Shown here: in pieces, positions 24,072 through 59,931 of the stretch
Position numbering within the stretch: position 1 is the first letter of the stretch
How the letters are laid out: each line of letters opens with the position of its first letter
Origin: a virus
IMG/VR virus record: IMGVR_UViG_3300026291_000001
Span: 311 to 64,310 of that record
Length of the DNA: 64,000 bases
Strand: one strand, 5' to 3'
The notes under the pieces: model-generated
The model's input: only the letters and a program-made list of their open reading frames with translations
What the model was told of the DNA's origin: nothing
Databases searched by the model: none
Made by a program: the position numbers and the translations under genes

Positions 24072-27000
24072 ATGGCCGCAAATCCTTACCGGACAGCCTT
24101 CGAAGCTATTAAGCCCGGCTCTTATGCCGATAGTGTGGAGTCTGGCGCACCGGAACCCGCAGCTAATAATAATCCGTATGAAAAAGCCTTTACGGAGATA
24201 CGCAATGCACCCAAGCCTGCCGGTACGCTGCGTCAACTGGGTACTCAACTAGGCGCGGGCGCTGTGGTTGATCTTCCAAGAATGGTGGGTCAGGCAGCGC
24301 AAGCTTTTAGCACAGAAGGCTCACCTACTACCAGGTTAGGTAAATCATTAGTGGCAGGCGCGGAGCAACGCGCTCCTAATTGGGAACCTGATTTAAGCGA
24401 TAAGAATGAAGTTCAAAAAGCTTTAATTACAGGAAGCCGATCCATAGCGCCTAGTTTGGCTACAGTAGGCGCTTATGCAGTTCCGTTTGCAGGGCCGGTA
24501 TTAGGGCCTGCTGCAACGATAGGTTTATATGGTGGCAGTCAATATCAGGACACTTATGAGAAAGCCAAACTGGCAGGAAACACCGACGAACAAGCCCATT
24601 TAGCGGGACTTGGCACCGGCGCTATTCAAGGTGGCGGAGAAGCTTTAGCTAATAAGATAACGCTAGGCTTATTCGGTGCCGGAAAAAATGTTGCCAAAGC
24701 AGGCATACAAGGTTTAACGGATACCTCAGTCATTAAACCCTTTGCTAAAAGCTTAGGGGTAGCCGCCATAGGCGAACCTGCTACGGAAGTAGGCCAGGAT
24801 ATAGGCACTGCGTTAGTAGAAAGAAATCAAGGTATACCTACTGGGCCTTTAAGCGATATAGCTTATCAATCAAGTACGGCGGCTTTAGGCATGACTGCCT
24901 TGTTTGCTCCATTTGGACTGGGAGGTCATGCAAATAATGCCAGACAAGTTCAAAACCGGAATAACGTCTTAACTGATACCACGAAAGCTCCTGAAGAACG
25001 TGTTAATGCAGCTAATGCCTTACACGCTCAAGCTAAACAGCTTGGCATAGCCGATGCCGATTTATGGCATAGTCAGGCAATGGACAGTATTAGTGCCGGA
25101 TTACCCGTTAGTTTATCTAACCCTGTTATAGCACAAGGCCCGCTCACTAGAGCCGCCAACAGCAACCCAGACTCAGTAGCAGCAGCGGCGGCACAGATCC
25201 AATCCACTAACCTTGCGCAAGCTGAAACAGACCGTGTAGCGCAAGAGCAAGCGGCAGCCAAGCAGGCCGACGACGCCAATAAGCAAGTTATCGCAGAGGC
25301 AAAAGCCAAAGAAACTGCGGCTAAGGCCGAACAAATAAAAGCTCAACAACAAAAACAACCAGGAGCAGACATTGGAACACCTGACACTAGCGGCCTTAGA
25401 GCAGATAATCAATCAGCAGTCAGACGCGTTACACCGGCTAGAGCACCAAGTTCAGGACTTGGAACTCAAGCTACAGGCATTAATACACCAGCACCTGACC
25501 TTACCGGAACAGCAACGGTTAGCGATGCATCGGAGGACATTAACTTAACACCCGCGCAAGCGGCCCTTAAACAAACGGAGAAACAAGATGTCGAAAGGCA
25601 AAAAAATACCACCGAAACCACCGAAACCCTGCTGAAAACTGAAGCGCCCGATAACAAGGGCGCTGAACCCTTCCCAGCAACCCACATAATGAGTGATGGA
25701 AATAAGGCTATCATTCAAAAGGATGGTTCTTTTAACGATATTAATGGCGATAATTGGACTGATCCTTATGCTGAAAAAATTAAACCCACTACCGAGACAA
25801 AAGCGAATGTCCCTGCACCAGCAAATCCGAAAATTGCACCAATCGAATCAGAAAAATCAGGAGCAGGTAAGACTGCATCCGGAATTATACAGACTAGCAA
25901 AGAAGCATCAGCCGAGCCTGTGGGAACGGATAAAGGAGTGGTTACGGGACTGACCGAAGATTCTTATACAAAAATAGATAATGAAAATATAAGAATAGAT
26001 GATGAAAATAGATGGGGAAAGCCAAAACTAAAAGAACACTTGGATAATGGTAATTTGCCCATTATTGATAAGCGTGATGAAGGTGGTATAAGAACTTATG
26101 AAGCAAAAGGTACTGGTAATCCGCTCCCTAAATGGAACGTGAGATTAACATTAACACCTGAAGAAAAAAAGGCAGCACAGAGAGCAGAAGCAGATTACGA
26201 GCTTGCTGAATCAGCAGAAGAAAAACAAAGCGCAAAAGATAATCTTGAAAAAATATTACTTAATGCCTCAAAACGAGCAGTACAAGAAACGGAAAGTTTG
26301 GCAAACCAAACAGAGGTAAAAACCAGTGAACAAGTCAAAAAAGAAGCGCCTGCGCAAGCTGTTCAAACGCCTAGTACCACTGAGGGATTAGATAATGCGA
26401 GAAATCTTGTTGCGAAAATAAGAGAGTCTCTTGCGCGTCCAGGTTCGGCAGGCATGTTAACAACACCAGCTGAATTAAAGAAAGTAGCGACGGATTTAGG
26501 TGTTTATAGCAAAGCCCATAAACCTATTCAGGTATTAGAAGCAGTCGAGGCCAAGTTAGCCGAAGTACAACAACCCACGCAGCCAGTGCCCAAGGCCGAA
26601 GCACAGGCTACCGTAGAAACACCAGCAGCACCTCAGACCCAACAAGAACAAATGAAGGCCAAGCTTGCGCAACAACGCCAATCCGAGCCTGATGTAACCC
26701 AAATCAGCAAAACGCATACGAAGATAAACAGCAGGGCGCAAGTCGAGCTAATTAATACCGGAACTGGACAATCCGTATTTCCAGGCAAGACATTCAAAAC
26801 ACCAACGGAAGCTAATCAGTTTTTCAAGGCGGCCAAGCAGACGCAATTATTGGCAGCAGGAAACACGCAGCCTACGGAAGCCAAGGCCGAGCCGGTTAAA
26901 TCCGAATTACAATTAAATAAGACTGGAAAGATAGAATCATTAGCGGATTTGATCAGTATTGCTCTATCAAGAAAAGACGGCAATAAGGCTTTCTCAGAAC

Positions 27001-30000
27001 TTGGTAAAGTAATGCCTGAAATAGCTAAAAAAGTACAACAAGCAACAGGAATTAATGTTGATGGATGGAGCCATGGTATAGATGAAGCGGCCATCAGGCA
27101 TATTATTAAAGAACATGGTAATGCGTTAGTTGAGTCTGCACGCGGTCAAATTGCAGTAACGCCTGAAGATATTAGTAATATAAAGGAAATAATACAAAAT
27201 CCTGATACGGTAGAAAAGGGCTATCCTATGCCTGATGGAACTGAAACCGTTATTTACAAAAAAATAATAGATGGCCAGTCTATTTATGTGCAGGAAATTA
27301 GAGAAGGAAGGGAAAAATTAACAGCAAAAACGTTGTGGAAAGTCCGCACTGTGCCGCCTGCTACAGAAAAAACTGGCTTGGTGCATACGTCCGAAACGTC
27401 CAGCGCGCGACCCCCACAACTGGATTCAAGTATAACGCAGCCATCAGAAAAGGCAACAAACACTAAAGAAGACAAGCCGAAAACACAGCCAAAATCGCCC
27501 AGTACCAAGACAGAAGCGCATTATTTTAGCCATTTAAGAGATAATGGATTTACTGCTTCCGAAATACAGGAGATTCAAGAAGCCGGTAAAACTAGGAAAG
27601 ATTTAACGGGCTGGGCGCGTGGACGCTTTGGCTATGACCGGATTAAAGGCGTTGATTTTAATGCGTTGCAACCAAGCAAGGCTGAACAGACAAAGACAGA
27701 AACGCCCGTAAAATCCGAACCCGTTAAGGCCGAGCAGTTGGTTAAGGCCGAGCAGCCGGTTAAGGTTGAGGCCAAGCCAGCCCAGGACAAGCCGGTTGAG
27801 ACTGATAAAAAAGGCACGGCGCTTTACAGCAAGGCCCAAACGCCTGCCAATGGAAGCACGATACAGCAAGTTAAGGGCTGGCTGTCAGGCATGAAGAAGC
27901 TGCAAGGCTTGATAGCAGCTGGACAATTAAGAGTCGTTAGCAATATCAATCAGCTACCCGACTCAGAAGCGCAGGGAGCAGGGGCAGAAGCCATCTATAA
28001 CCAGCGTACCAATACGATTACTTTATTTGCGGATAATATCAACGATAGCAATAGGGAATCGGTTTTATTTCATGAACTCATGCACATGGCCGAGGCTACC
28101 GATCCCAAGCTAAAGAAAGCCCTTGAACAGTTCGAGGGCGACTTACAGCGACGTTTTGACTTAGCCTTGAAAGGACTGGGTAGCAAGATTGAAAACGCAG
28201 CAGCAGCGCGAGTTATAAAAGCTGATACGCCACTTGCAGATCAACAAAGCGAGTTCAGAAGTTACATAATAAGTGAATATCTCAAAAAACCTGAATCCTT
28301 CACCGGCAAGCTTCTTAAAGCCATTAAAGACATCTTTGCGGCTATCAGGATTGCCCTGGTCAGGTCTGGTTTAGACTTTGGCATGGTTAGGAAACTGTCC
28401 GATGCAGACCTCTATGCAATGAGCAAGTACGGTACTCAGGTGAAAACCAATTCGGTGACAGCACCGCAATGGATAGGACAGGCGGCACTGGCAAGTAGCC
28501 AAGCCAGTAGGTTCTATTCCCAACTTCACAGAGCCTTGATAACCGCCCCCGATAAGATATTCGGCAATGCCGCCCAGGTTAAGTTGTGGCTAAACAGCAA
28601 TGCGCCTAAGTTGGGAATCAAGGGAGATGAGATTTACTGGAGTGGGATTAACGATTTTCTTGATATCAAAGCCGCCAACAAGGAGAAAGTCACCAAGGCG
28701 GATATGGATGCCTTTATGCGCGAGTCTGGAACGGTTAAGGTTGAGGATGTGATGTTGGGTGAAAATACAAATAAAAAACCTATAAAAACAATCAAATCAG
28801 ATGGGGACGTATGGACTGTTGAATTTAATGATGGGGAAATAAAAGAATTTTCAGCTTATTTAGCAGATGATAAGCAAGAAGCTGAAGCCTACGCCAGAAA
28901 AGGCAAATTAGACACCAAACACGGCGGCGGTACCCTGGTCATCCCTGGTGGTAGGGATTACAAGGAGTTGGTGATTACCATACCTACCATCGACAAATTC
29001 AATGAGAGCGACAAAACTCATTTCGGCGATGTTTCTCATGGAAAAGCTGTGGCCTGGGTCAGAATGGACACCAGAACCGACGCAAATGGCAAGGACACGC
29101 TGTTTCTTCAGGAAGTGCAATCACAGCGATCTCAAAGGGGTCGTAAAGATGGCTTCTCATATCTGGCGGATAAATGGCAGGCAGAATTTCAAACCGGCGA
29201 TGTGGCTTATTTCAACAACGAAGCCGATGCCAAAAAAGCTGAAAAACAAGGTGCTAAGGTAACACGGGTTACTGTTCCTGGCGTACCTCCAGCGCCATTC
29301 GTGACGGACGCAAATAATAAGGCCACGAACGCCTACATAGCCCTAACACTCAAGAAGGCCATCAGCCATGCGGTAGACAACGGGCAGCACAGTGTGAGCT
29401 GGACAACGGGGAATCAACAAAGTGAACGCTATAATTTGAGTAAGCAGATAAATTCAGTTTCATATAGAGGTGGGGATTATCAAGAACTCACGTATAACCT
29501 TATTGATAATAGTGGTACAAAAACACTAGAAAATGTACCAGAAAATAAAATTGCTGATTATATAGGCAAAGAAGTGGCAGAAAAACTGTTGCAACAACCT
29601 GTAGAGTTTAATGGTTTTAAAATATTAAAAGGACTTGATCTTGATATAAAACCAGCATGGGTATCCAGCATGTATGGCGATGAAAACGGCATGAATAAGG
29701 ACGGAAAACCCGCGATGATAACCCAGGCCGCAATGGAGATTGCCCGGAAAATGGGCGGGGAAGTGGGGAGTGTTAGTATTCCGGGACAATCAGATTATCA
29801 AGAAATTTTAGATATGCTAAATGACTTTGATAGTTTTCCAGAAGGCAGCAAAGGTAGGAGAGAGCTTGAATTAAAACTGCCAAAAACATACGACGATAGA
29901 GCTAAATTATCTGGCAAACAACCCGCCCTAATCATAACCGATTCTATGGCCGCAAAAATCCGCGCAGAGGGTATGCCCCTGTTTTCCAAAACTGGCGGCT

Positions 30001-33000
30001 TGGAGGCTAGCCGCGAGAATCTGCCCGCTACCCTAAATATCAACGGTAAAAAACGATCCACTACCAACAGCAACGGTGCGCCGATAGCGCAGACTGAGGA
30101 AGCGATTAGGAACTTCTACGCATGGTTTAAGGATTCAAAGGTGGTAGACGATCAGGGTAGGCCATTAGTCGTGTACCACGGAACTAATAACGATTTTAAT
30201 GAATTTGATGTCAGTAATGAACTGGGAGCGCACTTTGGGAGTACAGGGCAAGCAGGCAGTTTTGCTAAGACAAAGGGGCTTATCATTCCTGCATATATTA
30301 AGATGGATAATCCTTTAAGGCTTGTTGACAACGGTAGCTTCAATGCAAACGATATAATAGGCGAATTAATTGATACGGGTGTTATATCTCAGCAAGCAGG
30401 AGAAAACATACTTAGAAATGATGATCCTATGGCTACAGATTTGACAAAAAAACTCATAAAAAAATCAGGGTTTGACGGTATTGTATATTTAAACAGGAGA
30501 GAAGGACTGGTTGCTATTCTGGATGAAGATGAGGATTTTGAAGTAGATGCTACTGATAACGAATTTAAAGGAAAATATCCTAATGCTAAAGACTCATATA
30601 TTGCTTTTGAATCCAACCAAATAAAATCCGCCACGGGTAATTCCGGTGCGTTTAGCACCACGAACAACGACATCCGGTTTAGCGTTAGGGCGGCAACAGA
30701 AAACACCGAACCCCATATACCACAAGTCGATACCTGGCTCAGTAAATGGCTAAACCATACTAACCTGGACACGGCTATCTATAACCTGCAAGACCGTTAT
30801 ATTGATTTGTACCGGCAAATGCAGAAGATCACCAAAGAGGGCGGCGTGATTACCGAGTCTGAAAATGCACGGATGGGCGAAGAAGTTAGTCACCAGCGTA
30901 TTCAAAGCCGTATTAAAGAGTTTTACGATACCCAATTTAACCCGATCCTGGAAGAACTTCACGATAACAAGTTAGATATGGATGCCTTTCAAAAGGTTCT
31001 GCAAGCCCGTCATGCACCGAGCCGTAATGAAGTCATGGCCGAGCGCAACCCTAATCAAGAGATTATTGATGAAAAACTGGCCGATGCTGAACAGGCATTA
31101 GAGGATGCAGTCTCCAATAAAGAGAAACAGCAAGCGTCTACAGAAATAGCCAAGTGGAGCCGTGCGAAACCGTTTAGAGGTACTGAGGAAGAACGCTTAT
31201 CCTTATCAGGCATGACCGACGAACAAGCACAAACTACCCTGGATAATTTAACGCCAGAACAAAAGCGGGTCATGTTGCCATTGGCCGACAAAATCGACGC
31301 CATTAATAATGACACGCTGGATTTGATGGTGGCTTATGGCATGGAAACACCGGAATCCATTCAGGCATTAAAAGACCAGTGGGAGCACTATGTCCCTCTG
31401 CATCGTGACGAGGCGCACCCGGATGATGCTAATTTTGGTCATCCGATAGGTCGTGGGTACAGTATCCGAGGAACGGGTATAAAAACCGCAACTGGCTCCA
31501 ATGCCGAAGTGACCAACATCATGGCGCACATTGCCGCAGCGCGAGAACAAATGCTCAGACGTGGCGAGAAAAATAAGGTAACTGTGCAACTGGCCGATTT
31601 TATCACTAACCACCCAGACTCCACGTTCGCTGTTACCAAACCCTTACCGACTAAAGATTATTTGGTGAATGGCTTGGTTGAAACTTTACCGGACCCTACC
31701 TTTAAGGATAAAAACAATATTGTTATTTACCGGCTGAACGGCAAAGACAAGGCGCTTATCTTTAATGAATATGTACCGGAAAATGTGCGCCTTGCCATGT
31801 CGCTTAAAAATATGAACGGCATTGAACTGGATAAAGTGGAATCACTAATAGCAAAAGGTACTCGATGGCTTGCGAGCGTAAACACACAATTTAACGTCGT
31901 TTTTGGTTTGATGAACGTGACCCGTGATGTACAAGGCGCGATGTTAAACTTGACCAGTACGCCACTGGCTGGAAAACAACGCGCGGTTTTCTCAAAAATG
32001 GGCGACAGCATTAAAATTATTGCGGGTGTTGAAAGAGGATGGGCTAATACCGATCCTGCCTTAAAAGCGATGTATGAGCGTTTTAACAAAGCGGGTGGTA
32101 CCACGGCGTATAGCCAAATGTTTGAGGGTATCAAAGACCGTGACCATGCTATCCGTAATGAATTGAAGAAATTGAAGGAAGGGAAAGCTATGCACATGGG
32201 CCGTGCAGTCGTTAAAGCCTTGTCCGATTTTAATACCGTGATGGAAAATAGCACACGGCTATCCGTGTTTATGACAGCGGTTGAATCAGGTTTAAGCGAT
32301 ATGCACGCGGCCAGTTTAGCCAAGAACATCACCGTTAACTTTAACCGGAAAGGCGCTTACACCACTAAAGTAGGTTCACTCTATGCCTTTTTTAATGCCT
32401 CGATGCAGGGCAGCTTTCGCATGGCGGAAACCCTAAAGGGTCCTGCGGGTAAACAAATCCTGATAGGCGGCGTGGGACTGGGCGCAGCGTTAACCATTCT
32501 GGGTATTGCCGCCATGGGCGCGGATGACTGGGACAAAATACCGGAGTTTATCAAGGAGCGCAGTTTGATTATTCCGGCACCGTGGAACAGTTCCGGGTAT
32601 ATTGCTATACCGATGCCTCTCGGTTTTCATATCCTTCCCACGCTCGGAAGAGTTCTTGTTGAATCGCTTATTGGTAGCAATAGAATTACCAATCAACATA
32701 GATTTATGAATTTGATTGGTGCGACCACTGGCGCATTCAACCCGCTAGGCGGCAGTGACATTAGCACTTTAGTGATGCCGACTGTATTGGACCCGGCGCT
32801 GGCTCTTTGGAGAAATAAAGATTGGACAAACAAGACGGTTTATCTTGAAGATTTTAACTCGCTTGATCCTACGCCGGGTTATCTTCGCACCAAGAATACG
32901 GCGTCTGCGCCTTCCAAATGGGCGGCAGAAGCAGCGAATACTTTAACTGGAGGTACCTCTTACAAACCTGGATTATGGAGTCCTACGCCCGATCAGCTTG

Positions 33001-33407
33001 ATTATGTCATGGGTCAACTTACCGGAGGAACTGGCAGGGAACTCTTGAAAGCTCAAGAGGCTGTTGCCAGTATCGGTTCAGATGAAGAACTCCCCACCTA
33101 TAAAATACCCTTAATCGGTAGGTTATACGGAACTGTCACAGGTGACGCGGAAGAACGTACGGCTTATTATGAAAATGTTAAAGCATTGAATGAGGAAAAC
33201 AATGAGGTTCAGGGCTTGTTGAAAGAGGAAAACGGCAGAGTGAAGGCCAACGAATACCTAAGAAATAATCCACTGGCACGAGTCTATAACCGGGCGCATG
33301 TTTATCAGAAAATGATTGATAAGCTTAAGAAACGCCCTGGTTCGGAACAGCGTATAATGGATTTAATGAAGCGGCAAAATACGTTAGTGTCTCAGGCACA
33401 GAAATAG
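24072..33407 (+). CDS. giant polyvalent virion/ejection protein (3111 aa)
   Basis: PBECR-like nuclease region (AIRHIIKEHG...EIIQNPD), zincin metallopeptidase HELMH, ART-like WFKDSKVVD.QGRPLVVYHGT, LPD38-like C-terminus (YIAIPMPLGF, DPALALWRNKDW). Confidence 0.8.
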   Translation: MAANPYRTAFEAIKPGSYADSVESGAPEPAANNNPYEKAFTEIRNAPKPAGTLRQLGTQLGAGAVVDLPRMVGQAAQAFSTEGSPTTRLGKSLVAGAEQRAPNWEPDLSDKNEVQKALITGSRSIAPSLATVGAYAVPFAGPVLGPAATIGLYGGSQYQDTYEKAKLAGNTDEQAHLAGLGTGAIQGGGEALANKITLGLFGAGKNVAKAGIQGLTDTSVIKPFAKSLGVAAIGEPATEVGQDIGTALVERNQGIPTGPLSDIAYQSSTAALGMTALFAPFGLGGHANNARQVQNRNNVLTDTTKAPEERVNAANALHAQAKQLGIADADLWHSQAMDSISAGLPVSLSNPVIAQGPLTRAANSNPDSVAAAAAQIQSTNLAQAETDRVAQEQAAAKQADDANKQVIAEAKAKETAAKAEQIKAQQQKQPGADIGTPDTSGLRADNQSAVRRVTPARAPSSGLGTQATGINTPAPDLTGTATVSDASEDINLTPAQAALKQTEKQDVERQKNTTETTETLLKTEAPDNKGAEPFPATHIMSDGNKAIIQKDGSFNDINGDNWTDPYAEKIKPTTETKANVPAPANPKIAPIESEKSGAGKTASGIIQTSKEASAEPVGTDKGVVTGLTEDSYTKIDNENIRIDDENRWGKPKLKEHLDNGNLPIIDKRDEGGIRTYEAKGTGNPLPKWNVRLTLTPEEKKAAQRAEADYELAESAEEKQSAKDNLEKILLNASKRAVQETESLANQTEVKTSEQVKKEAPAQAVQTPSTTEGLDNARNLVAKIRESLARPGSAGMLTTPAELKKVATDLGVYSKAHKPIQVLEAVEAKLAEVQQPTQPVPKAEAQATVETPAAPQTQQEQMKAKLAQQRQSEPDVTQISKTHTKINSRAQVELINTGTGQSVFPGKTFKTPTEANQFFKAAKQTQLLAAGNTQPTEAKAEPVKSELQLNKTGKIESLADLISIALSRKDGNKAFSELGKVMPEIAKKVQQATGINVDGWSHGIDEAAIRHIIKEHGNALVESARGQIAVTPEDISNIKEIIQNPDTVEKGYPMPDGTETVIYKKIIDGQSIYVQEIREGREKLTAKTLWKVRTVPPATEKTGLVHTSETSSARPPQLDSSITQPSEKATNTKEDKPKTQPKSPSTKTEAHYFSHLRDNGFTASEIQEIQEAGKTRKDLTGWARGRFGYDRIKGVDFNALQPSKAEQTKTETPVKSEPVKAEQLVKAEQPVKVEAKPAQDKPVETDKKGTALYSKAQTPANGSTIQQVKGWLSGMKKLQGLIAAGQLRVVSNINQLPDSEAQGAGAEAIYNQRTNTITLFADNINDSNRESVLFHELMHMAEATDPKLKKALEQFEGDLQRRFDLALKGLGSKIENAAAARVIKADTPLADQQSEFRSYIISEYLKKPESFTGKLLKAIKDIFAAIRIALVRSGLDFGMVRKLSDADLYAMSKYGTQVKTNSVTAPQWIGQAALASSQASRFYSQLHRALITAPDKIFGNAAQVKLWLNSNAPKLGIKGDEIYWSGINDFLDIKAANKEKVTKADMDAFMRESGTVKVEDVMLGENTNKKPIKTIKSDGDVWTVEFNDGEIKEFSAYLADDKQEAEAYARKGKLDTKHGGGTLVIPGGRDYKELVITIPTIDKFNESDKTHFGDVSHGKAVAWVRMDTRTDANGKDTLFLQEVQSQRSQRGRKDGFSYLADKWQAEFQTGDVAYFNNEADAKKAEKQGAKVTRVTVPGVPPAPFVTDANNKATNAYIALTLKKAISHAVDNGQHSVSWTTGNQQSERYNLSKQINSVSYRGGDYQELTYNLIDNSGTKTLENVPENKIADYIGKEVAEKLLQQPVEFNGFKILKGLDLDIKPAWVSSMYGDENGMNKDGKPAMITQAAMEIARKMGGEVGSVSIPGQSDYQEILDMLNDFDSFPEGSKGRRELELKLPKTYDDRAKLSGKQPALIITDSMAAKIRAEGMPLFSKTGGLEASRENLPATLNINGKKRSTTNSNGAPIAQTEEAIRNFYAWFKDSKVVDDQGRPLVVYHGTNNDFNEFDVSNELGAHFGSTGQAGSFAKTKGLIIPAYIKMDNPLRLVDNGSFNANDIIGELIDTGVISQQAGENILRNDDPMATDLTKKLIKKSGFDGIVYLNRREGLVAILDEDEDFEVDATDNEFKGKYPNAKDSYIAFESNQIKSATGNSGAFSTTNNDIRFSVRAATENTEPHIPQVDTWLSKWLNHTNLDTAIYNLQDRYIDLYRQMQKITKEGGVITESENARMGEEVSHQRIQSRIKEFYDTQFNPILEELHDNKLDMDAFQKVLQARHAPSRNEVMAERNPNQEIIDEKLADAEQALEDAVSNKEKQQASTEIAKWSRAKPFRGTEEERLSLSGMTDEQAQTTLDNLTPEQKRVMLPLADKIDAINNDTLDLMVAYGMETPESIQALKDQWEHYVPLHRDEAHPDDANFGHPIGRGYSIRGTGIKTATGSNAEVTNIMAHIAAAREQMLRRGEKNKVTVQLADFITNHPDSTFAVTKPLPTKDYLVNGLVETLPDPTFKDKNNIVIYRLNGKDKALIFNEYVPENVRLAMSLKNMNGIELDKVESLIAKGTRWLASVNTQFNVVFGLMNVTRDVQGAMLNLTSTPLAGKQRAVFSKMGDSIKIIAGVERGWANTDPALKAMYERFNKAGGTTAYSQMFEGIKDRDHAIRNELKKLKEGKAMHMGRAVVKALSDFNTVMENSTRLSVFMTAVESGLSDMHAASLAKNITVNFNRKGAYTTKVGSLYAFFNASMQGSFRMAETLKGPAGKQILIGGVGLGAALTILGIAAMGADDWDKIPEFIKERSLIIPAPWNSSGYIAIPMPLGFHILPTLGRVLVESLIGSNRITNQHRFMNLIGATTGAFNPLGGSDISTLVMPTVLDPALALWRNKDWTNKTVYLEDFNSLDPTPGYLRTKNTASAPSKWAAEAANTLTGGTSYKPGLWSPTPDQLDYVMGQLTGGTGRELLKAQEAVASIGSDEELPTYKIPLIGRLYGTVTGDAEERTAYYENVKALNEENNEVQGLLKEENGRVKANEYLRNNPLARVYNRAHVYQKMIDKLKKRPGSEQRIMDLMKRQNTLVSQAQK

Positions 33408-34311
33408 CAGCACTATCCGAAACCATGGCTGGCAAATGAATATTTGATATGCAGGATTCACCCCAATATTTTATTTCAGCCTGTACGCGAGCGTATATTG
33501 CGTCATCCATGTTTGCAAATATACCCAGGTAAATATTTTTCTTATTAACCTTAATTTCTGCGCGCCATTTTGAACTTTGTTTATGAAATCCTACACCTCT
33601 ATATCCACTTTTTGATTTTGTTTCCCTTTTCCTTTGAGCCAAACCCATATTCGCCTTTGCTTCATCAGAAAATTTTCTACCTAAATTGGGTTTCCTTCCT
33701 TTGCTTGCCTCAGACATTTTTTTCCTTGATTCCTCTGAATGTCTTTTACCTGTGTGATAAACCCTTAATTTTTCCTTTGTTGCCTTAGAAAGAATCTTCC
33801 CTTTATGTGCCAGTCCTATTTTTGCTTTATGACTATCAGTCAGTTTATGAGTTACCTTCTTTTTATTGCCGGTATTTGCTAGACTAATTTTCTTTCGAGT
33901 TTCTTCGGTAGCTGGTAGTCTATTTTTTTGTGATAAGCTCATTTTTACCTTTGATTCATCCGAATGTTTCTTACCTTTATTTCGCTCGCTTAGTATCCTT
34001 TTGGTTTCCTCACAAGGGGCAGAGTTATCGCCACCGCTTCTAAGATTATAACCATTAGGTGATAGCGAGTTATAAATAAAAATATAGAACGATTCCCAGT
34101 CGTTAGCTTCTTTTAATGAAAGTTCATCAATCAGAATCTCATGGGCAAAACTATCCCATCCATATTTTTTTATGGCATTAGCAAAAGCCCTGCATTGATT
34201 ATTTGTCCACTTATGGCGATTTGTTCTTGCTTGGTAATTGTTTGTTTGCCCAATATAGGCTTTTCCATTTGGAGCAGTATGCTTATAAATTACAAAATTT
34301 GATGCTTCCAT
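33325..34311 (-). CDS. GIY-YIG homing endonuclease with NUMOD3 repeats and AP2 domain
   Basis: VIYKHTAPNGKAYIGQT, GYNLRSGG, repeated GKKHSDESK.KMS, SGYRGVGFHKQSSKWRAEI; the 3' end overlaps the giant gene antisense by 83 nt. Confidence 0.88.
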   Translation of the reverse strand: MEASNFVIYKHTAPNGKAYIGQTNNYQARTNRHKWTNNQCRAFANAIKKYGWDSFAHEILIDELSLKEANDWESFYIFIYNSLSPNGYNLRSGGDNSAPCEETKRILSERNKGKKHSDESKVKMSLSQKNRLPATEETRKKISLANTGNKKKVTHKLTDSHKAKIGLAHKGKILSKATKEKLRVYHTGKRHSEESRKKMSEASKGRKPNLGRKFSDEAKANMGLAQRKRETKSKSGYRGVGFHKQSSKWRAEIKVNKKNIYLGIFANMDDAIYARVQAEIKYWGESCISNIHLPAMVSDSAAISVPETLTYFAASLNPLYAVPNQGVS

Positions 34312-34467
34312 GACAACCCCCGAACATGAGTTATTGAACAAAAAAGGATGTGGCGACAAGGTGTTCAAGCTTGTATTCAGCAAGGGTAATTAGTCCAAGC
34401 CTAGCCACTTCTTAAGTATAGACGGAATAATGAAAAAGCAGAATGATCTGGTGCAGGCGGCCTATGG

Positions 34468-34689
34468 TTAATCCTGCAAATCAAGCCTGATCTCGATGCG
34501 ATCCAGGCGCTCAACAACCTTATCGATAGACGACTGCATCCGGGCGTCAGTCACCGCGCTATAAGCTTGATGATGCTCCAGGTCAGCGACTCTAAGCGTC
34601 AAATCGCGCACATCCTCAGCCGTCCTATCCACAGTTTTTCGGATATGGCGGAGCTGTTCTAAAACGATATTACTAATATCAGCGGTCAT
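34468..34689 (-). CDS. small coiled-coil protein (NIVLEQLRHIR family, paralog 1 of 4)
   Basis: MTADISNIVLEQLRHIR...RLDRIEIRLDLQD. Confidence 0.7.
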   Translation of the reverse strand: MTADISNIVLEQLRHIRKTVDRTAEDVRDLTLRVADLEHHQAYSAVTDARMQSSIDKVVERLDRIEIRLDLQD

Positions 34690-34724
34690 TTTTTTCTCCT
34701 GAATTTCAATTGAATCTAGTATAG

Positions 34725-34760
34725 TTCAAGCAGCCTGCATACTGGCTTGGTAAGTATGAC
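34725..34760 (+). CRISPR. solitary Cas12m-type repeat
   Basis: AGCCTG CATACT GGCTTGGTA AGTATG AC (core 34732-34760), perfect 6-bp stem, same architecture as the repeats after cas12m. Confidence 0.8.
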
Positions 34761-34913
34761 GGGTTTCATTTTTTTCTTTAACGCGAGAATTTCATTTTTT
34801 CTTTTTAATAAATTACTATAATGTATATGTGGCAATAGGGGGATACCCCGAAAACTCCTTCAGTAAGAGCTGTGCCACTAACCTTAAACTGAAAACTTAA
34901 CTGGAGTTTTATT

Positions 34914-35087
34914 ATGAACACATCAAGAACCGCGCTTTACCGGCACTACGATAAGCAAAACATTTTGCTTTATGTAGGCATTTCGCTCTCGGCTACCTAT
35001 CGCCTTAGACAGCATCAATCAAGTGCTCAATGGGTTACGGATGCAGTGCGCATGGAAACTATGTGGTTTGATAAGGAATCCGCATGA
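34914..35087 (+). pseudogene. truncated GIY-YIG endonuclease (57 aa)
   Basis: TALYRHYDKQNILLYVGIS...RLRQH; ATGA-coupled to the next gene. Confidence 0.6.
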
Positions 35088-35413
35088 ACGCCACTGCCTT
35101 CGACACGCACGAATTTGTTAAGAAATTAAAAGGCGTAGGCTTCAGTGAGGAACAAGCCGAAGTCTTAACCGAACTGCAAAAAACCACCGTAGTCAACACA
35201 CTGGAACAGGCTCGGCATGATTACGAGCTGGATAATCTGGCTACCAAAAGGGATTTAAAAGAATTTGAACTGACGGTTAGTCTGCAATTTAAACAAGTTG
35301 ATGTAAAGATAGCCGAAACTAAAGCCGAATTAATCCGTTGGGTGGTAGCTGTTGGTTTATTACAGACAGTGATTATTACCGGCTTGATTTTGCGCTTGAC
35401 GGGGAAAATTTGA
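35084..35413 (+). CDS. DUF1640/CCDC90-like membrane-anchored coiled-coil protein (paralog 1 of 3)
   Basis: AFDTHEFVKKLKGVGFSEEQAE...LATKRDL...C-terminal TM. Confidence 0.85.
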   Translation: MNATAFDTHEFVKKLKGVGFSEEQAEVLTELQKTTVVNTLEQARHDYELDNLATKRDLKEFELTVSLQFKQVDVKIAETKAELIRWVVAVGLLQTVIITGLILRLTGKI

Positions 35414-37308
35414 TGATCATAGTCCGGAACTACGGCCTTTTACCTCCCGATAATTGGGGAGACGATTGTCACGAACAGTTATTCATGATGAGCAAGTTCT
35501 GGAATCAGCTTGTTGAAATAGACCACGCCGACCGTGAGCGTTATCGCGCTATTCTTACCGAAGACCCGGAAGTAGCAACGCTGGAAGTCCGTCTTTTTGA
35601 AACATCCGAACAACTGTTAAGTTTATCGACCGAGCGTAAAAAACTCAGATCATCCGCGCGTTCTAAAAATGTGGATGACGGCCTGCTTGTGGAGCGGATT
35701 AAAATCCTGCGCGAGACTGAGAAATCAATCAAGGCTCAACTAAAACTAAGTAGGGCAGCGAAGCGGGAAGCGTCAAAACCTGCCTTGGATGCGCTTAATG
35801 AAGCCCATAAAGCCACCGTTAAACAGGCTCGGAAAACATGCGGCTTATTCTGGAGTAATTACAATGCCGTCCTTGAATCCTACCAGGCAGCTCGTACCAA
35901 GGCCATGAAAATAGGCGTCGATCTGCGCTTTCGAAGGTTTGACGGGTCCGGTCGCTTTGTCAATCAGGTTCAGGGTGGTATCGATGTCTCGGAGTTCATG
36001 CACGGTACTTATAGTATGGCAGGTATTGATCCCGAACTATTTCCGGTCCTTGGACGTAGCGGGAAAGACCGGCCACGGTTGCATATAACAGCATTTACAG
36101 GCCATGACGCAGAGGGTAAGCACTTTCGGCGCACCTTAAGCTTTCCTGTTATCCTGCACCGTCCGATACCAGAAGAGGTTAACGGGTATCCGGTACGCAT
36201 AAAAACGCTGACCGTATCAAAGAAACGAGTCAGCGCCGGACACTTCGACTGGAGCTTGACATCCTCCACCAACTTAAAAAGCGTGGATTCCCAAGTACAG
36301 CCTTTCATGCCCGAAAGGGATGACTCTGAAAGTCATCTTACTTCACCCCAGCCCGGAGTTAATCCTGATGAGGTGAAAATACGCAGCAACAGCGTACCCA
36401 ACAAATTAAGTATAGTACAAAACGCTTTTATTTATAGGTTGACCATTACCGCGACGACTGATGGTGAAGCGATAGCTAATGCAAGCCCGGTAGCGGCAGG
36501 CGTTAACCTGGGCTGGAAGCGGGAAGGCCAAGCCTTACGGGTTGCCACGATTTACGATAGCAACGGCGATAGCGAACATTTTAGACTTCCGGCCACGTGG
36601 ACGACTGCCATGGATTACGCGGAATCGCTACGCGGAGATATTGATGAAGTTACCAACTTAATGTTTACGGCGTTACTGGCGCAAAATATTGAATCGGAAT
36701 TGCTGACTAAAGCCAAGCGCCCACACCCTGCCTTAATTAACCGCTTTGCACGTGAAGCTGAAATACGGCCCATGCTACAGGCACATATTATTACCAAGGA
36801 ACTGGTTATTGAATCTATAGCTATGCTACCGGCGCTCAATGCGCTACCGTGTTATCTAGCGTGGTCACGTTATAAAGAGCGCGAGTTTAGCGGTTTAAGA
36901 ACCCGGCTACTTGGGCAACGCAAAGACTTATACCGGAACATTGCGGCTACATTAGCCAGTCGTTATTCAGTTATTGCAATCGACAATGCCGACTATGCGA
37001 AAATGGCCCGGTTGGAATCACGGGGCGGCGAGGAAAATGACTTGTTAAAGATTGCCCGGACGAACCGGTTCAGGGTATCTCCTTCTGAGCTGCGTTTGTC
37101 GATTGAGCAGGCGATAGCCAAGAGCGGCGGCGTAGTCGAACGGGTCGGACAGCAAAACGAATGCGCGAATTGTGGCAGGCCCGATAAACAAGATACAATA
37201 ATCTGGAAATGTGGGCATTGCGGGGCGGTGTATGACCAAGATGAAAACATGGCGAAATTGTTGATTCGTGGGTATCTTCCTGAGCAGTCAAAGGGTGCGA
37301 CAGGGTAG
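35413..37308 (+). CDS. cas12m: Cas12m (type V-M / V-U1)-like effector, predicted nuclease-dead
   Basis: 631 aa; YGLLPPDNW, long REC coiled coil, FWSNYNAVL...LRFRRFDGSGRFVNQVQGG, RuvC GVNLGW / IAIDNAD / YDQDENMA, zinc finger CANCG...CGHCG; repeats start directly after the stop codon. Confidence 0.85.
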   Translation: MIIVRNYGLLPPDNWGDDCHEQLFMMSKFWNQLVEIDHADRERYRAILTEDPEVATLEVRLFETSEQLLSLSTERKKLRSSARSKNVDDGLLVERIKILRETEKSIKAQLKLSRAAKREASKPALDALNEAHKATVKQARKTCGLFWSNYNAVLESYQAARTKAMKIGVDLRFRRFDGSGRFVNQVQGGIDVSEFMHGTYSMAGIDPELFPVLGRSGKDRPRLHITAFTGHDAEGKHFRRTLSFPVILHRPIPEEVNGYPVRIKTLTVSKKRVSAGHFDWSLTSSTNLKSVDSQVQPFMPERDDSESHLTSPQPGVNPDEVKIRSNSVPNKLSIVQNAFIYRLTITATTDGEAIANASPVAAGVNLGWKREGQALRVATIYDSNGDSEHFRLPATWTTAMDYAESLRGDIDEVTNLMFTALLAQNIESELLTKAKRPHPALINRFAREAEIRPMLQAHIITKELVIESIAMLPALNALPCYLAWSRYKEREFSGLRTRLLGQRKDLYRNIAATLASRYSVIAIDNADYAKMARLESRGGEENDLLKIARTNRFRVSPSELRLSIEQAIAKSGGVVERVGQQNECANCGRPDKQDTIIWKCGHCGAVYDQDENMAKLLIRGYLPEQSKGATG

Positions 37309-37311
37309 TGG

Positions 37312-37413
37312 TAAAAATAGCCTGCACAGTGGCTTGGTGACTGTGACGGCAAGTAATATAACTTACCTTATGGATGGTAATAACAGCCTGCACAGTGGCA
37401 TGGTAATTGTGAC
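37312..37413 (+). CRISPR. mini CRISPR array 1 (2 repeats, 1 spacer)
   Basis: Cores 37319-37347 AGCCTGCACAGTGGCTTGGTGACTGTGAC and 37385-37413 AGCCTGCACAGTGGCATGGTAATTGTGAC; 37 nt between cores. Confidence 0.88.
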
Positions 37414-37435
37414 GTATGTACATCGGCATAAACCC

Positions 37436-37495
37436 TAAGCGACACACCGTATCAGACTGTCGCTTAATTAACACACTGTTACCATCTGTTAATTA
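37436..37495. repeat. two abutting 31-bp inverted repeats (9-13-9)
   Basis: TAAGCGACA-N13-TGTCGCTTA and TAATTAACA-N13-TGTTAATTA. Confidence 0.7.
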
Positions 37496-37567: not shown

Positions 37568-38140
37568 ATGCTCAAATGTTATCATAAGATGAATATAGTC
37601 GAGGCCGCCAACAAGACCGAGATAGCGATGGTACATGGGTTACTGACTCGGAAGTACCCGCGCCTTTATGCTGATATTTGGAAAGTAGGCGTTAACCTGT
37701 CCTTGCGTATTTCTGATTTATTGGCGATAAAGTATGCCGATCTCAACGTCAGCAAACGTAGCCTAAAACTAATTGACAAAAAAACCAGTAAACCCAACGA
37801 AGTGCGCTTGAATAATACCGTGATGGATATTATTAACCAGCGCCGTAATGACTACCCCAATGATGAGTGGCTGTTTCAGGTCCACAGTTCTCGCGCTAAC
37901 AACAAACCTATTTCCAGAGTAGCGGTCGCCGTGGCTTTTAAAAAAGCGGGCGAACAACTAGGCTTAACCATCAATACCCATAGTATGCGTAAATCACGCG
38001 GCATGGCTTTATTCGAGGATGGTGTTCCCGTGGAAATGATAGCCAAGGTATTGAATCATACAAATCCCTTGCATACGTTAAGGTATTTAGGGATTACGAA
38101 AGAAAAAGTGTTAGCAACTTATGATCTGTATGAACTGTAA
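37568..38140 (+). CDS. tyrosine recombinase (catalytic domain only; resolvase/integrase-like)
   Basis: LSLRISDLL, KKTSK, THSMRKSRG, LNHTN...TLRYLG: R-K-H-R-H-Y set present. Confidence 0.9.
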   Translation: MLKCYHKMNIVEAANKTEIAMVHGLLTRKYPRLYADIWKVGVNLSLRISDLLAIKYADLNVSKRSLKLIDKKTSKPNEVRLNNTVMDIINQRRNDYPNDEWLFQVHSSRANNKPISRVAVAVAFKKAGEQLGLTINTHSMRKSRGMALFEDGVPVEMIAKVLNHTNPLHTLRYLGITKEKVLATYDLYEL

Positions 38141-44703: not shown

Positions 44704-45798
44704 ATGAACATTCAAATTAAAACCTTAAAAGTTAGAATCCGCGATAAACATGCAGATGTTTTGAATCGCATGTCTTTTGAAGTCAATCAAGTCTGGAATG
44801 CAGCCAATGAAACGTCTGCTGAGTTCGCTTGGGTTCCAGTGCCTGAAGTTGGCTATATGAATATGCAGACATCCGGTTTTGACTTAATGAAGGAGCTGAA
44901 AGGAATCCGCAAAGAACGAAGTATGATTATCAGTGCTAGAACTGTTCAGGAAGTAATAGCCGTCCACGCCAAGACCCGCAAACAATTCAAGAAAGACAAA
45001 CTAAGGTGGAGGTCTTCAGGTGGAGCAAGACGCGCTTTAGGATGGGTTCCTTTCAAGTCTGGATCGGCTTGTTGGATAAATGGTCAAGTCAGGTTCTGCG
45101 GTATCTATTTCAAGTGTTGGGATAGCTACGGCTTAAGCCAATACGATTTTAGAAGCGGCTGCTTCTCTGAAGATAGTCGAGGCCGCTGGTATTTCAATAT
45201 CGTAGTGCATGTCGAGGAAGAAGTCAGGCTATCAGAAGGTGGTCAGATAGGCATTGATTTAGGACTTAAGACAACGGCAACCTGTAGCAATGGCGTAGTA
45301 TTGGAACGTAAACAGTTTTATCGTAATTTAGAAGAAAAACTAGGCAAGGCACAGCGAGCTAATAAGAAGAAACTGGTTAAAACGATACATGCAAAAATTA
45401 AGAACCAACGGCTTGATGCGAATCATAAATTTAGCCGTAAAATAGTAAATGAAAACAGTTTAATAGTAGTTGGCAATGTAAGCAGTTCAGGTCTGGCAAA
45501 AACCAAGATGGCTAAGTCCGTTCTTGATGCAGGCTGGTTCATGCTAAAAACGATGATTGATTATAAATCGAAAGCGATGCAATCAGCGTTCATAGAAGTC
45601 AATGAAGCATACACTACTCAAGCGTGTTCGTGCTGTGGCTGTATAAGCTCCAGTAGTCCGAAAGGTAGACGCGATCTTGATGTAAGAGAATGGACTTGTG
45701 CCGAGTGTGGCACCGAGCATGATAGAGATATTAATGCGGCTAAGAATATTCTCTCTCTGGGACATCAGAGACTAGCAGTAGGAATCCTCTCCCTTTAG
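44704..45798 (+). CDS. tnpB: TnpB with apparently rearranged RuvC-II
   Basis: GIDLGLK, IVVGNV (no canonical E), VNEAYTTQACSCC, HDRDINAAKNI; right end GGAATCCTCTCCCTTTAGAGAGAGGAGGATGTCAA at 45781-45815. Confidence 0.9.
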   Translation: MNIQIKTLKVRIRDKHADVLNRMSFEVNQVWNAANETSAEFAWVPVPEVGYMNMQTSGFDLMKELKGIRKERSMIISARTVQEVIAVHAKTRKQFKKDKLRWRSSGGARRALGWVPFKSGSACWINGQVRFCGIYFKCWDSYGLSQYDFRSGCFSEDSRGRWYFNIVVHVEEEVRLSEGGQIGIDLGLKTTATCSNGVVLERKQFYRNLEEKLGKAQRANKKKLVKTIHAKIKNQRLDANHKFSRKIVNENSLIVVGNVSSSGLAKTKMAKSVLDAGWFMLKTMIDYKSKAMQSAFIEVNEAYTTQACSCCGCISSSSPKGRRDLDVREWTCAECGTEHDRDINAAKNILSLGHQRLAVGILSL

Positions 45799-54673: not shown

Positions 54674-55924
54674 ACAATCACCTACCTGAAGGAAGGTGCT
54701 TTTATGGTAACTAAAATCGTTCCACATTAGGGCGGCTTACCGCACCCCTTGACGGACTGAAAAGCCTGTCAAACTTAGCAATATTCGACGCCGCATTGAC
54801 GTCGCTGTGGGATAAGTGACCACAGTTCTTACAGGAAAATTTATGTTTTACACGAGTACCGATAGCATCACAGACCGAGCAGGATTTGGAGGTATAAGCG
54901 GGATTAATGTATTTAATCTCGATACCGACCGCTTGTGCTTTGTAGGCAACAAAATCTTGAAGCTGTCTAAACGACCAGCGATGCAAGCGAGAGCGAACGC
55001 GCCTACCGGCTTTGATGTTATCGCGAATGTTGGTCAAGTCCTCAAGCCTGATTTCACTGGCATTGTAGGCAATGGCTTCTTGAACAATCGCTTTGGATAT
55101 TTCGTGGTTTACGTGTTTTACATGGGCTACTTCTTTGCCGGAGATTTTCTTCAGCAATTGCTTTGCCGAATTAGAACCGTTGCGTTGAAGTCTCTTGCGG
55201 TGCGCCAAGAACTTGTCTCGTTTATGGCGCAGTTCGCCACCACCAAACACCTTTCCGGTGCTGGTTGCAGCGATATTATTTTCACCAACATCAACACCCA
55301 TAGAGCCGTTTCCGGTACTGGGTGTAGCGTCGGGTATGTCAATAACCAGATTGAAGTACCACTGGCCTTTTCGTTTAAGCAATTCTGCTTCTTTGGCAAT
55401 ACCAGAGTTAAGCAGGTTAGCTTGATGCTTACCCAATATGTAATTGACTGCTATGCGGCCATCCAGCGTGAACAGGGAAATAACTTCTTTCTTGAACGAA
55501 TAGGTACGCTTATCAAAGTGCACGGAAGACGTTTGTTTAAAGCTGATAACCGGCCAGTCTTCTTTTTTGAGCTTGGGTTCATTAGCTACCAAGGACTTGT
55601 AAGACTGGGCAACATTAGCAATGGCATTACAGACCATTTGGGAGCCAAGAGCAGGCACTTGTTCCCTGACAGAATAGTAGCAAAGATGGTGCAAAGCTAC
55701 CCGATTCGAGCATTTGACGTGTGCGGAAAAACCAACCGCAATGTTACAAGCGTTAGAAAATTCAACTTGCAAAGCGTCGAGTTTAACGCTTTGTTCGATG
55801 GTTGGATCAAGCTTGATAGACACTGTTTTTTTCATATAGGAAACTATAGATTAGAAACAGCAAAAGATCAAGAGCACTCCTTACCTCCCCGCCCTAAAGA
55901 GACGGGGTATCACGGAGCTTTCCG
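54670..55924 (-). mobile_element. IS200/IS605-family element (tnpB only)
   Basis: Minus-strand left end CGGAAAGCTCCGTGATACCCCGTCTCTTTAGGGCGGGG after TCAT; right end AAAGCACCTTCCTTCAGGTAGGTGATTGTTTAC. Confidence 0.85.
54711..55835 (-). CDS. tnpB: TnpB RNA-guided endonuclease
   Basis: GVDVGE, RLEDLTNIR, HSDVNAASNI (D-E-D intact), CSVC...CKNC. Confidence 0.93.
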   Translation of the reverse strand: MKKTVSIKLDPTIEQSVKLDALQVEFSNACNIAVGFSAHVKCSNRVALHHLCYYSVREQVPALGSQMVCNAIANVAQSYKSLVANEPKLKKEDWPVISFKQTSSVHFDKRTYSFKKEVISLFTLDGRIAVNYILGKHQANLLNSGIAKEAELLKRKGQWYFNLVIDIPDATPSTGNGSMGVDVGENNIAATSTGKVFGGGELRHKRDKFLAHRKRLQRNGSNSAKQLLKKISGKEVAHVKHVNHEISKAIVQEAIAYNASEIRLEDLTNIRDNIKAGRRVRSRLHRWSFRQLQDFVAYKAQAVGIEIKYINPAYTSKSCSVCDAIGTRVKHKFSCKNCGHLSHSDVNAASNIAKFDRLFSPSRGAVSRPNVERF

Positions 55925-56128: not shown

Positions 56129-56299
56129 GTCACAATTATGAAGCCATTGTGCAGGCTGTTGCTGACTCGAATATGCATCTAAGTACGTCACAATTACGAG
56201 GTCACTGTACAGGCTCTGACTTAAAAGTTAAATTTACCAAGCCAATTTACAGGCATTACGAGTGTCACATTTTCGATGCCAATGTACAGGCTTGAGTTT
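56129..56299 (-). CRISPR. delocalised mini array 2 (4 degenerate Cas12m-type repeats)
   Basis: 29-nt cores at 56129-56157, 56187-56215, 56227-56255, 56264-56292; inter-core gaps 29, 11 and 8 nt; all keep the 6-bp stem on the minus strand. Confidence 0.8.
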
Positions 56300-58994: not shown

Positions 58995-59080
58995 GTCACA
59001 ATTATAAAGCCACTGTGCAGGCAAGATTAAATTATATGGCTACCGTCACAATTACAAAGCCATCGCGTAGGCAGATTAGA
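58995..59080 (-). CRISPR. delocalised mini array 3 (2 Cas12m-type repeats)
   Basis: Cores 58995-59023 and 59045-59073, 21 nt apart; minus strand TGCCTGCACAGTGGCTTTATAATTGTGAC and TGCCTACGCGATGGCTTTGTAATTGTGAC. Confidence 0.8.
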
Positions 59081-59748: not shown

Positions 59749-59931
59749 ACTGTTTTCTCTCTCTTTTGTTAATTGTAGTAACAAAAAAGAATTTAAGCAA
59801 GAAAAAAACCACCATGATTCATTTGCCATTTGAAAAAAAAAGCGAATTATGGTATACGTATGGCTCTCTAATCGTCACCGCGACGACACAGCGGATAAAC
59901 CCCTACGGGATTATATGAGATTTAAAAAACC

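Follow-up and report, generated by a model that had tools for sequence, protein, structure and literature searches.

The DNA considered here, hereafter the window, is a stretch of 64,000 nucleotides (positions 311–64,310 of the 64,913-bp IMG/VR record IMGVR_UViG_3300026291_000001) that originates from a soil metagenome. It carries a cas12m gene, the product of which (P0001) is a type V-M effector with Asn-Asp-Asp (N-D-D) in its RuvC site, and a minimal CRISPR array lies directly behind the gene. An earlier note on this DNA had described the gene as a phage-encoded, nuclease-dead Cas12m without adaptation genes that serves as an RNA-guided repressor. We consider it very probable that a temperate-type soil phage carries a working type V-M N-D-D Cas12m module here, which would act as a fixed-target silencer and supply extra handle RNAs. 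The genes and the array are arranged as follows:

34914..35087, plus strand: open reading frame (ORF) for 57 amino acids (orf57); its stop overlaps the next start (ATGA, 35084-35087)
35084..35413, plus strand: gene for a DUF1640/CCDC90-like coiled-coil protein of 109 amino acids that has a hydrophobic segment at its C-terminus; the gene's stop and the cas12m start overlap
35413..37308, plus strand: cas12m (P0001, 631 amino acids), type V-M effector of the N-D-D clade; stop codon TAG at 37306-37308
37312..37347, plus strand: CRISPR repeat B1, beginning 4 nt past the cas12m stop
37348..37377, plus strand: single true spacer of 30 nt between B1 and B2
37378..37413, plus strand: CRISPR repeat B2, the 3' sequence of which could act as a second, repeat-less guide
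37438..37465, plus strand: hairpin AAGCGACA...TGTCGCTT, 24 nt past the last repeat, read from the sequence

The operon junction, TTTGATGATC, shows the coupling of cas12m to the preceding gene that had been noted before, as the upstream TGA (35411-35413) shares its A with the cas12m ATG (TGATG). The upstream protein matches PF07798 (CCDC90-like/DUF1640) with E 6e-8 and 33.2 bits, which is below the Pfam cut-off of 33.5 bits, so that ‘DUF1640-like’ is the accurate wording; orf57 has a weak, below-cut-off similarity to PF01541 (GIY-YIG, N-terminal part; E 0.003). The first repeat does follow the stop codon as claimed, immediately if a 40-nt similarity block is considered and after 4 nt with the 36-nt unit, which we defined from the 10-repeat array of a relative. 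Because of this short distance, the array is probably co-transcribed with cas12m. The hairpin behind it possibly forms the 3' end of the transcript, as judged from its sequence; it has no clear T-run and was not picked up by a terminator scan. The reported lack of cas1, cas2 and cas4 also holds: Pfam profiles for Cas1, Cas2 and Cas4, which do register in control genomes, remained without a match (E<=1) throughout the 64,913-bp record.

The Cas12m protein and its RuvC site

P0001 is a full-length type V-M Cas12m of the N-D-D branch, as the earlier note had proposed for its family. The five best matches in a sequence search of the PDB were all Cas12m chains, with E-values of 5.2e-39 for 23vw_A, 4.2e-33 for UnCas12m4a (23vu_A), 6e-19 for MmCas12m2 (8hhl_A) and 2.7e-12 for 8pm4_A (taken as GoCas12m by its entry title), whereas TnpB (8bf8) appeared at E 0.9. 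For the two closest solved chains by sequence, 23vw_A and UnCas12m4a, the alignment runs from the N-terminus up to and including the Zn-ribbon. An AlphaFold2 model for which 12 homologues were used (predicted local distance difference test score, pLDDT, 78.8) contains long helices (residues 17-167), beta regions (180-392), further helices (394-517) and a Zn-ribbon (574-608), and thereby the Cas12m fold of WED, REC1 with an inserted coiled-coil REC2, RuvC and a Zn-ribbon target-nucleic-acid-binding (TNB) domain. When this model was submitted to Foldseek, ranks 1-4 were all taken by Cas12m (8hhl, 8pm4, 8hio and 8hhm, E 7.6e-24 to 4.3e-17), led by MmCas12m2 (7.6e-24) and GoCas12m (1.5e-23) and followed by Cas12f, Fanzor and TnpB at 1e-9 to 1e-7. 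The template-modelling (TM) scores of the Cas12m matches are only ~0.45 because an apo multi-domain model was compared with ternary complexes.

That the gene might instead be an ordinary transposon tnpB, with the repeats representing insertion sequence (IS) ends or omega-RNA sequences, is practically out of the question. Such a reading could draw on two real tnpB genes in the phage and on the C-terminal 130 residues of P0001, which are weakly similar to TnpB models (NF040570, E 1.9e-6); yet the two TnpB family models, whose cut-offs are 100 and 350 bits, score no more than 27 and 18 bits, respectively, and P0001 resembles the phage's own TnpB proteins over just 31 residues, which belong to the Zn-ribbon. 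Over its full length it matches Cas12m at E 1e-39, as opposed to 0.9 for TnpB, it possesses a long REC coiled-coil region that TnpB is without, and its relatives are accompanied by true spacer-bearing arrays. The traits of IS200/IS605 TnpB proteins (~350-450 amino acids, no REC2, D-E-D, omega-RNA, IS ends) are not those of P0001. Clustering with ordinary TnpB, which had been named as the observation that would overturn the assignment, was looked for by sequence, by profile hidden Markov models and by structure, each time with a negative result. We regard a TnpB identity as refuted by the PDB search, the relatives' arrays, Foldseek and the 31-residue limit of similarity. The residues and segments that matter for the discussion of the active site are these:

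36259..36441, plus strand: in-frame insertion of 61 amino acids (183 nt), residues 283-343, missing from all 11 aligned relatives
36505..36507, plus strand: codon of N365 in RuvC-I (Asp in canonical Cas12 and TnpB), from alignments; motif GVNLGW, residues 363-368
36982..36984, plus strand: codon of D524 in RuvC-II (Glu in canonical enzymes), from alignments; motif IAIDNAD, residues 521-527
37162..37221, plus strand: Zn-ribbon (TNB) CxxC...CxxC with C584/C587/C600/C603; PF07282, E 8.4e-5
37240..37242, plus strand: codon of D610, the RuvC-III Asp of a D-x-N-x-A motif, from alignments; YDQDEN, residues 607-612

In the HMMER alignment to 23vw_A, N365 faces Asp (AAIDLGWR), D524 faces Glu (IVLEE) and D610 faces Asp; with Asp and Glu at the first two positions, 23vw_A is therefore of the D-E-D type. 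In MmCas12m2, the counterpart of D524 is an Asp-Asp (vlvDD) in the region containing D485, the site that its authors mutated as dRuvC (PMC10442227). The Asn at RuvC-I and the Asp at RuvC-II are thus correctly placed in the earlier description. None of the 12 aligned clade members (P0001 and 11 relatives) deviates at N365, D524 or D610 or at the four Zn-ribbon cysteines; the alignment includes P0018, a protein named from Pelobacter propionicus that is 38-40% identical, aligns with P0001 over its whole length and has the same triad. More distant homologues have D-E-D, N-x-D and H-D-D sites. Since N-D-D is invariant across the clade, the substitution is ancestral to this Cas12m branch and does not represent a phage-specific inactivation.

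Eight Cas12m proteins with D-E-D, H-D-D and N-D-D sites have been characterized, none of which cut DNA; they bind it in a PAM (protospacer-adjacent motif)-dependent manner and process precursor CRISPR RNA (pre-crRNA) independently of RuvC (Bigelyte et al. 2024; PMC11013384). PmCas12m (N372/D494/D581, YTN PAM), for which a cryo-electron microscopy structure is available, likewise binds without cutting and uses a crRNA composed of a ~33 nt repeat and a ~17 nt guide (bioRxiv 10.64898/2026.03.26.714355). P0001 shares the family, the triad and the crRNA handle topology with the N-D-D orthologues (PmCas12m, PpCas12m and MkCas12m; two of PMC11013384), and it also resembles them in its size class, the C-terminal Zn-ribbon and the lack of adaptation genes. 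It differs from them in that it resides on a complete tailed phage and not on a bacterial chromosome or plasmid, is served by a single spacer, has a disordered insertion of 61 amino acids before RuvC-I and is accompanied by seven extra handles at three other loci. Moreover, binding, PAM and lack of cleavage are known for the orthologues by assay, whereas binding without cleavage is a prediction for P0001. The best structural matches, MmCas12m2 (8HHL/8HHM/8HIO; PMC10442227) and GoCas12m (8PM4), have the bilobed WED-REC-RuvC-ZnF build and a non-canonical RuvC in common with P0001 and silence by binding, as P0001 would by analogy; unlike P0001, they are of the H-D-D type and stem from actinobacterial hosts, not from a phage of a probable proteobacterium, and the identity in the structural alignment amounts to 17-18%. 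On this basis, a nuclease-dead status of P0001 is a reasonable assumption by homology.

The novelty implied by the earlier note was overstated, as three traits of type V-M had been published already, namely the N-D-D site, missing adaptation genes and a location on mobile elements. Loci of types V-U1 to V-U5, V-U1 being the present V-M, are typically without acquisition genes (PMC11013384), type V-M is common on plasmids (PMC11656645), and it has already been reported from plasmids and some prophages. The insertion (residues 283-343) is flanked by a 5-nt direct repeat, TTGAC, holds a 7-bp inverted repeat, GATGACT...AGTCATC, and is predicted to be disordered (pLDDT <50 for residues 287-340). 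A small mobile insertion might have left it behind as a footprint; a second copy was sought in the window and not found.

Repeats beside cas12m and elsewhere in the phage

The phage contains nine cognate repeats at four loci (A, B, C and D), seven of which lie outside the array (locus B). Both an nhmmer profile and a scan for a strict motif (GCYTR, 6-nt stem, 9-nt loop, 6-nt stem, AC) agree on these nine copies and on none besides in 64 kb. A repeat-core pattern with 3 mismatches allowed gave 4 matches where 0.00 were expected by chance (100 shuffles), and Rfam has no family matching the repeat. With regard to a tracrRNA, which type V-M does without, an nhmmer search of both strands found no antisense copy of the repeat within 18 kb of cas12m. 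The adjacent array had been recorded correctly in the earlier account of the locus, which did not extend to the other seven repeats:

34725..34760, plus strand: solitary repeat A (nhmmer E 3e-10 and structural motif scan)
56129..56299, minus strand: locus C with four co-oriented repeats, C1-C4 (profile and motif scans)
58995..59080, minus strand: locus D with two co-oriented repeats, D1 and D2, 21 nt apart, downstream of minus-strand brnA

Repeat A is situated in a divergent intergenic region, with a T-rich tract, GGGTTTCATTTTTTTC, behind it; the distance from the repeat to the first gene of the orf57-DUF1640-cas12m operon, which lies downstream, is ~150 nt. Compared with the stem of B1 (CACAGT/ACTGTG), that of A (CATACT/AGTATG) shows two compensatory pair changes. 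Locus C is placed between two minus-strand genes, a DUF1640-like ORF on its upstream side and tnpB on its downstream side, and loci A, C and D are all co-oriented with the local genes. The core-to-core gaps at locus C measure 8 and 10/11 nt for C1 and C2 and 28/29 nt for C3, so that some units cannot carry a normal guide: usable guides are present at C3, C4, D1 and D2, and almost none at C1, C2 and A.

Covariation was counted for 16 distinct repeats from six loci and compared with 500 shuffles and with slid registers. The handle is paired in 99.3% of the cells and has both-side changes in five of its six stem pairs, a result that was reached by none of the shuffles (0/500), nor did any slid register approach its pairing score. 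Counted back from the last repeat base, its helices consist of -28..-26 with -17..-15 and -23..-20 with -6..-3, and the paired positions are identical to those of the PmCas12m crRNA. G-U wobbles are compatible with the stated strands only, and for the copies on the minus strand, at 56 and 59 kb, folding works in their own sense alone; consequently, C and D are sense repeats of minus-strand transcripts. As judged from these pairing patterns, the repeats are the cognate Cas12m crRNA handle, a predicted two-helix pseudoknot that is under selection.

Five proteins are 57-75% identical to P0001 and form a six-protein, soil-derived branch with it. Four of the five are encoded on phage-like metagenome contigs, namely L005 (59 kb, with DarA and PAAR genes), L006 (terminase, Mor, Bro-N and endolysin genes), L007 (an Ogr/Delta gene) and L028 (Cro/HTH and HNH genes), while on L027 cas12m adjoins a plasmid-type TrfA gene. 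The same repeat type is found directly 3' of cas12m in all five. L006 has 10 repeats with diverse spacers of 28-35 nt, L027 has three and L007 two, L005 has a mixed array, and the one downstream repeat of L028 is cut by the contig end. Arrays of the same structural repeat also stand beside homologues of 28-33% identity in the bacterial genomes L008, L009 and L013. As relatives carry arrays of the same repeat type beside cas12m, the repeats behind the phage gene constitute a true, if minimal, CRISPR array. The array of L005 (11800-12260) mixes two repeat types (GTTGAAAACCGTGCTCAGCCGGTTAAATGTTGAGAC and GCCTG...GAC) and contains a hybrid unit, which suggests recombination between arrays.

A lone repeat upstream of cas12m recurs in two of these loci. 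In L028 it occupies 2539-2574, 32 nt before the cas12m ATG, so that the ‘guide’ following it is the ribosome-binding site region of cas12m; in L009, a Nitrospirae metagenome-assembled genome (MAG), it lies at ~5826-5860, ~140 nt upstream of cas12m, and has the same sequence as the repeat that ends the downstream array. No upstream lone repeat was found in L005, L006, L007 and L027. On three short metagenome contigs on which no cas12m gene is visible (L029 3556-3870, L031 1597-1911 and L032 311-625), Cas12m-type repeats in both orientations flank or lie between genes for tRNA-Lys and tRNA-Ile.

The scattered copies lend themselves to two further readings. One is that the dispersed repeats A, C and D are RNA anti-CRISPR (Racr-type) decoys that titrate the V-M Cas12m of a host or of a rival plasmid or phage. 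It is established that solitary viral repeat units can act as inhibitors by mimicking CRISPR repeats (PMC10651486), the guide-less units C1 and C2 would suit a decoy, and V-M systems are, as mentioned, frequent on plasmids. We nevertheless think a decoy function quite improbable, given that the phage encodes the cognate Cas12m itself, which would be titrated too, and that several repeat units leave room for a guide.

According to the other, which we rate just as low, the module is a decaying remnant with a shrunken array, a disruptive insertion and scattered repeats that are the debris of former arrays. One spacer here compared with nine in L006, the collapsed spacing at locus C and an insertion unique to P0001 would fit such a history. 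On the other hand, the insertion is in-frame with flanking strands that are modelled confidently, the ORF is intact and every clade-invariant residue has been kept, and all nine repeats are fully paired via compensatory or wobble changes, unlike what neutral decay would leave. The intact ORF and invariant residues together with the stems kept by compensation speak against decay. The gene itself is ordinary for its family; the uncommon feature is the presence of seven extra handle copies across the phage.

The phage and its accessory genes

The carrier is a phage, as had been stated. Portal, major head/capsid, terminase and tail proteins are encoded in the 64,913-bp record, which CheckV rates as 100% complete, and the source run's own contig of 64,501 nt is permuted relative to the IMG/VR record, as fits a closed genome. 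The portal protein is ~45% identical to portals of Pseudomonas phage F116 and related Pseudomonas phages, and a portal search returned 408 matching records, many Stx-converting phages among them. A Cro-like gene, lambda O/P-like replication genes and a short integrase-family gene indicate a temperate-type phage of a proteobacterium; the phage resembles F116 and lambdoid phages, and its host is probably proteobacterial. Neither a megablast search of the locus against phages nor protein and repeat pattern scans of IMG/VR revealed a related phage. In a second soil study (run X2), short contigs with an identical cas12m end and repeat B1 (compared with window positions 37300-37480) were present, so that close relatives of the phage are present in more than a single sample; on contigs of the same run the repeat was also seen in other contexts, one of which resembles the upstream solitary-repeat region of L028.

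The cas12m module sits in an accessory region beside the integrase-family gene:

37568..38140, plus strand: short tyrosine-recombinase/integrase-family gene (190 amino acids), directly 3' of the array; PF00589, E 2e-20

Several other genes deserve mention. An ORF for 3111 amino acids follows the tail genes (24072-33407, 9.3 kb) and contains a HELMH metalloprotease-like motif; on its far side, a GIY-YIG/NUMOD3 homing-endonuclease gene is located at 33325-34383 (minus strand). The two full-length IS605-type tnpB genes (PF07282 and PF01385) are found at 44704-45798 (plus strand) and 54711-55835 (minus strand); the latter shares its strand with repeat locus C, of which it is the direct downstream neighbour. 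A BrnA antitoxin gene at 59461-59829 (minus strand; PF14384, E 8e-23) is the direct upstream neighbour of repeat locus D, and brnA also occurs in L006, as does a homologue of orf57, which is located away from cas12m.

Small DUF1640/CCDC90-like ORFs are also found near repeats or cas12m at 56443-56715 (minus strand) in the window, upstream of locus C, and at 1861-2097 in L027, with weak Pfam matches (E 5e-4 and 9e-5, respectively). A DUF1640-like gene upstream of cas12m is present here and in L027, where it lies two genes away, and is not found in L005, L006 and L028; the two DUF1640-like ORFs of the window are not significantly similar to each other. With this restricted occurrence and the dissimilarity of the two ORFs, the link is too weak to claim, and we dropped DUF1640 as a candidate accessory gene of cas12m.

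Guides, targets and possible roles

If the module functions like those of the characterized orthologues, Cas12m would be translated from the orf57-DUF1640-cas12m operon, would cut the pre-crRNA itself, independently of RuvC, into ~50-nt crRNAs (~33-nt handle plus ~17-nt guide) and would then bind PAM-flanked double-stranded DNA tightly without cutting it, thereby keeping the target from being transcribed or replicated. Having a single real spacer, the module would be a silencer of fixed specificity and not an adaptive immune system. Its most likely target would be another mobile element met by the lysogen, as has been proposed for plasmid-borne V-M. The seven extra handles at A, C and D would probably yield further Cas12m-bound RNAs that might serve as extra guides, in self-regulation or as decoys, and repeat A, upstream of the operon, may feed back on Cas12m expression.

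A similar principle is realized in TldR proteins, RNA-guided, nuclease-dead repressors of the TnpB/Cas12 lineage that belong to mobile elements and have a fixed specificity (cited in the PmCas12m preprint). TldR uses an omega-RNA and is without a CRISPR array or a REC2 insertion, whereas P0001 is a Cas12m with CRISPR repeats. Some TldRs are reportedly prophage-borne.

The guides themselves did not lead to a target. Neither the one true spacer nor any of the six other possible guides matched the phage better than shuffled guides did, and this comparison took in the whole phage with the 913 bp that lie beyond the window. For spacer B1, exact matches to its first 18 or 22 nt were absent from IMG/VR and from JGI metagenome contigs, the array region matched no GenBank phage, and its one partial match in PLSDB (a Geminocystis plasmid, 34 nt, 88%, E 0.03) was taken as chance. 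The source run and the second soil run contained no protospacer, and no guide matched the loci of the relatives. The same holds for the relatives: the L006 array had no matches in phages and plasmids, two L006 spacers had none in IMG/VR, and a comparison of the 55 spacers of all loci considered with each other and with the window yielded one chance-level 16-mer. As protospacers were not found for the relatives' spacers either, no PAM is derivable, and as none was found at all, the target class is a guess. The type V-M assignment, the N-D-D site, the array and the absence of adaptation genes from the earlier note therefore stand, while the target class of its proposed repressor could not be narrowed, the guides matching nothing beyond the null expectation.

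Several points weigh against a working silencer module and have to be set against the evidence given above. None of the collections searched contained a protospacer for any of the guides. In the scans for consensus promoters and terminators, the counts did not exceed those expected from shuffles. The array with its one spacer could also mean decay. Non-cutting DNA binding is deduced from orthologues that are at most ~40% identical, and the unique insertion of 61 amino acids falls into the WED/RuvC-I region, where it may affect function.

A different role is a real if unlikely possibility, namely that Cas12m mainly serves the phage's own gene expression by binding or cutting the nine handles in phage transcripts, with defence being secondary. 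Its action on handles, including the one in the leader of its own operon, would then set transcript ends, stability or the Cas12m level. This idea gains from the fact that seven of the nine handles are outside the array, co-oriented with their neighbours and foldable by compensation even at the guide-less units C1 and C2, and from the lone repeat, which stands upstream of cas12m also in L028, the closest relative, and in the Nitrospirae MAG L009. It suffers from the absence of that repeat in L005, L006, L007 and L027, from the lack of any guide match to a phage promoter beyond chance and from the circumstance that an RNA-directed regulatory role of Cas12m does not appear in the published literature.

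Repeat A and the lone upstream repeats of L028 and L009 are reminiscent of CreR mini-CRISPRs (bioRxiv 10.1101/2023.03.10.532045) and of phage crRNA-like RNAs (bioRxiv 10.1101/2024.10.29.618823), which also feature a lone, diverged repeat near the cas upstream region. A CreR-like circuit requires a pseudo-spacer that matches the promoter beside a PAM (bioRxiv 10.1101/2023.03.10.532045), and here a difference emerges, as a partial pseudo-spacer match to the cas promoter with a PAM was looked for at repeat A and not found. The T-rich motif behind repeat A recurs nearby (34684-34698 and 34790-34804). The best local match of guide A (34787-34804, 13/17) has seed mismatches at guide positions 2-3 and the 5' flank GCGA, and thus no T- or C-rich PAM, and it is no better than that of shuffled guides, which counts against control of the phage's own expression as well. 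Because seed and PAM of this match do not fit, CreR-type autoregulation via repeat A is not claimed, and feedback on cas12m expression is kept as no more than a possibility. The CreR and Cas12m literature covered holds no description of CreR for type V-M.

Somewhat more doubtful is the far-reaching version in which Cas12m has turned into a regulator of phage transcripts and the nine handles mark RNAs, its own leader included, for binding or cutting. If this were true, the module would chiefly be an RNA-handle-based gene-expression circuit with a secondary defence function or none, and the repeats between tRNA genes on L029, L031 and L032 would represent another use of the handle as an RNA-processing signal.

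We favour the reading of the module as a working, fixed-target silencer with extra handle RNAs. With this gene, the known N-D-D Cas12m group gains a branch that is phage-borne and derived from soil. In practical terms its value is modest: the gene provides another compact DNA binder, naturally non-cutting by homology, and residues 283-343 mark a natural insertion site that may tolerate cargo. The biological interest resides in the setting, a complete temperate-type phage that keeps a one-spacer silencer and seven extra handles, and thus a compact system in which to ask how mobile elements use non-cutting CRISPR effectors without adaptation, be it for the silencing of rivals, for self-regulation or for decoying.

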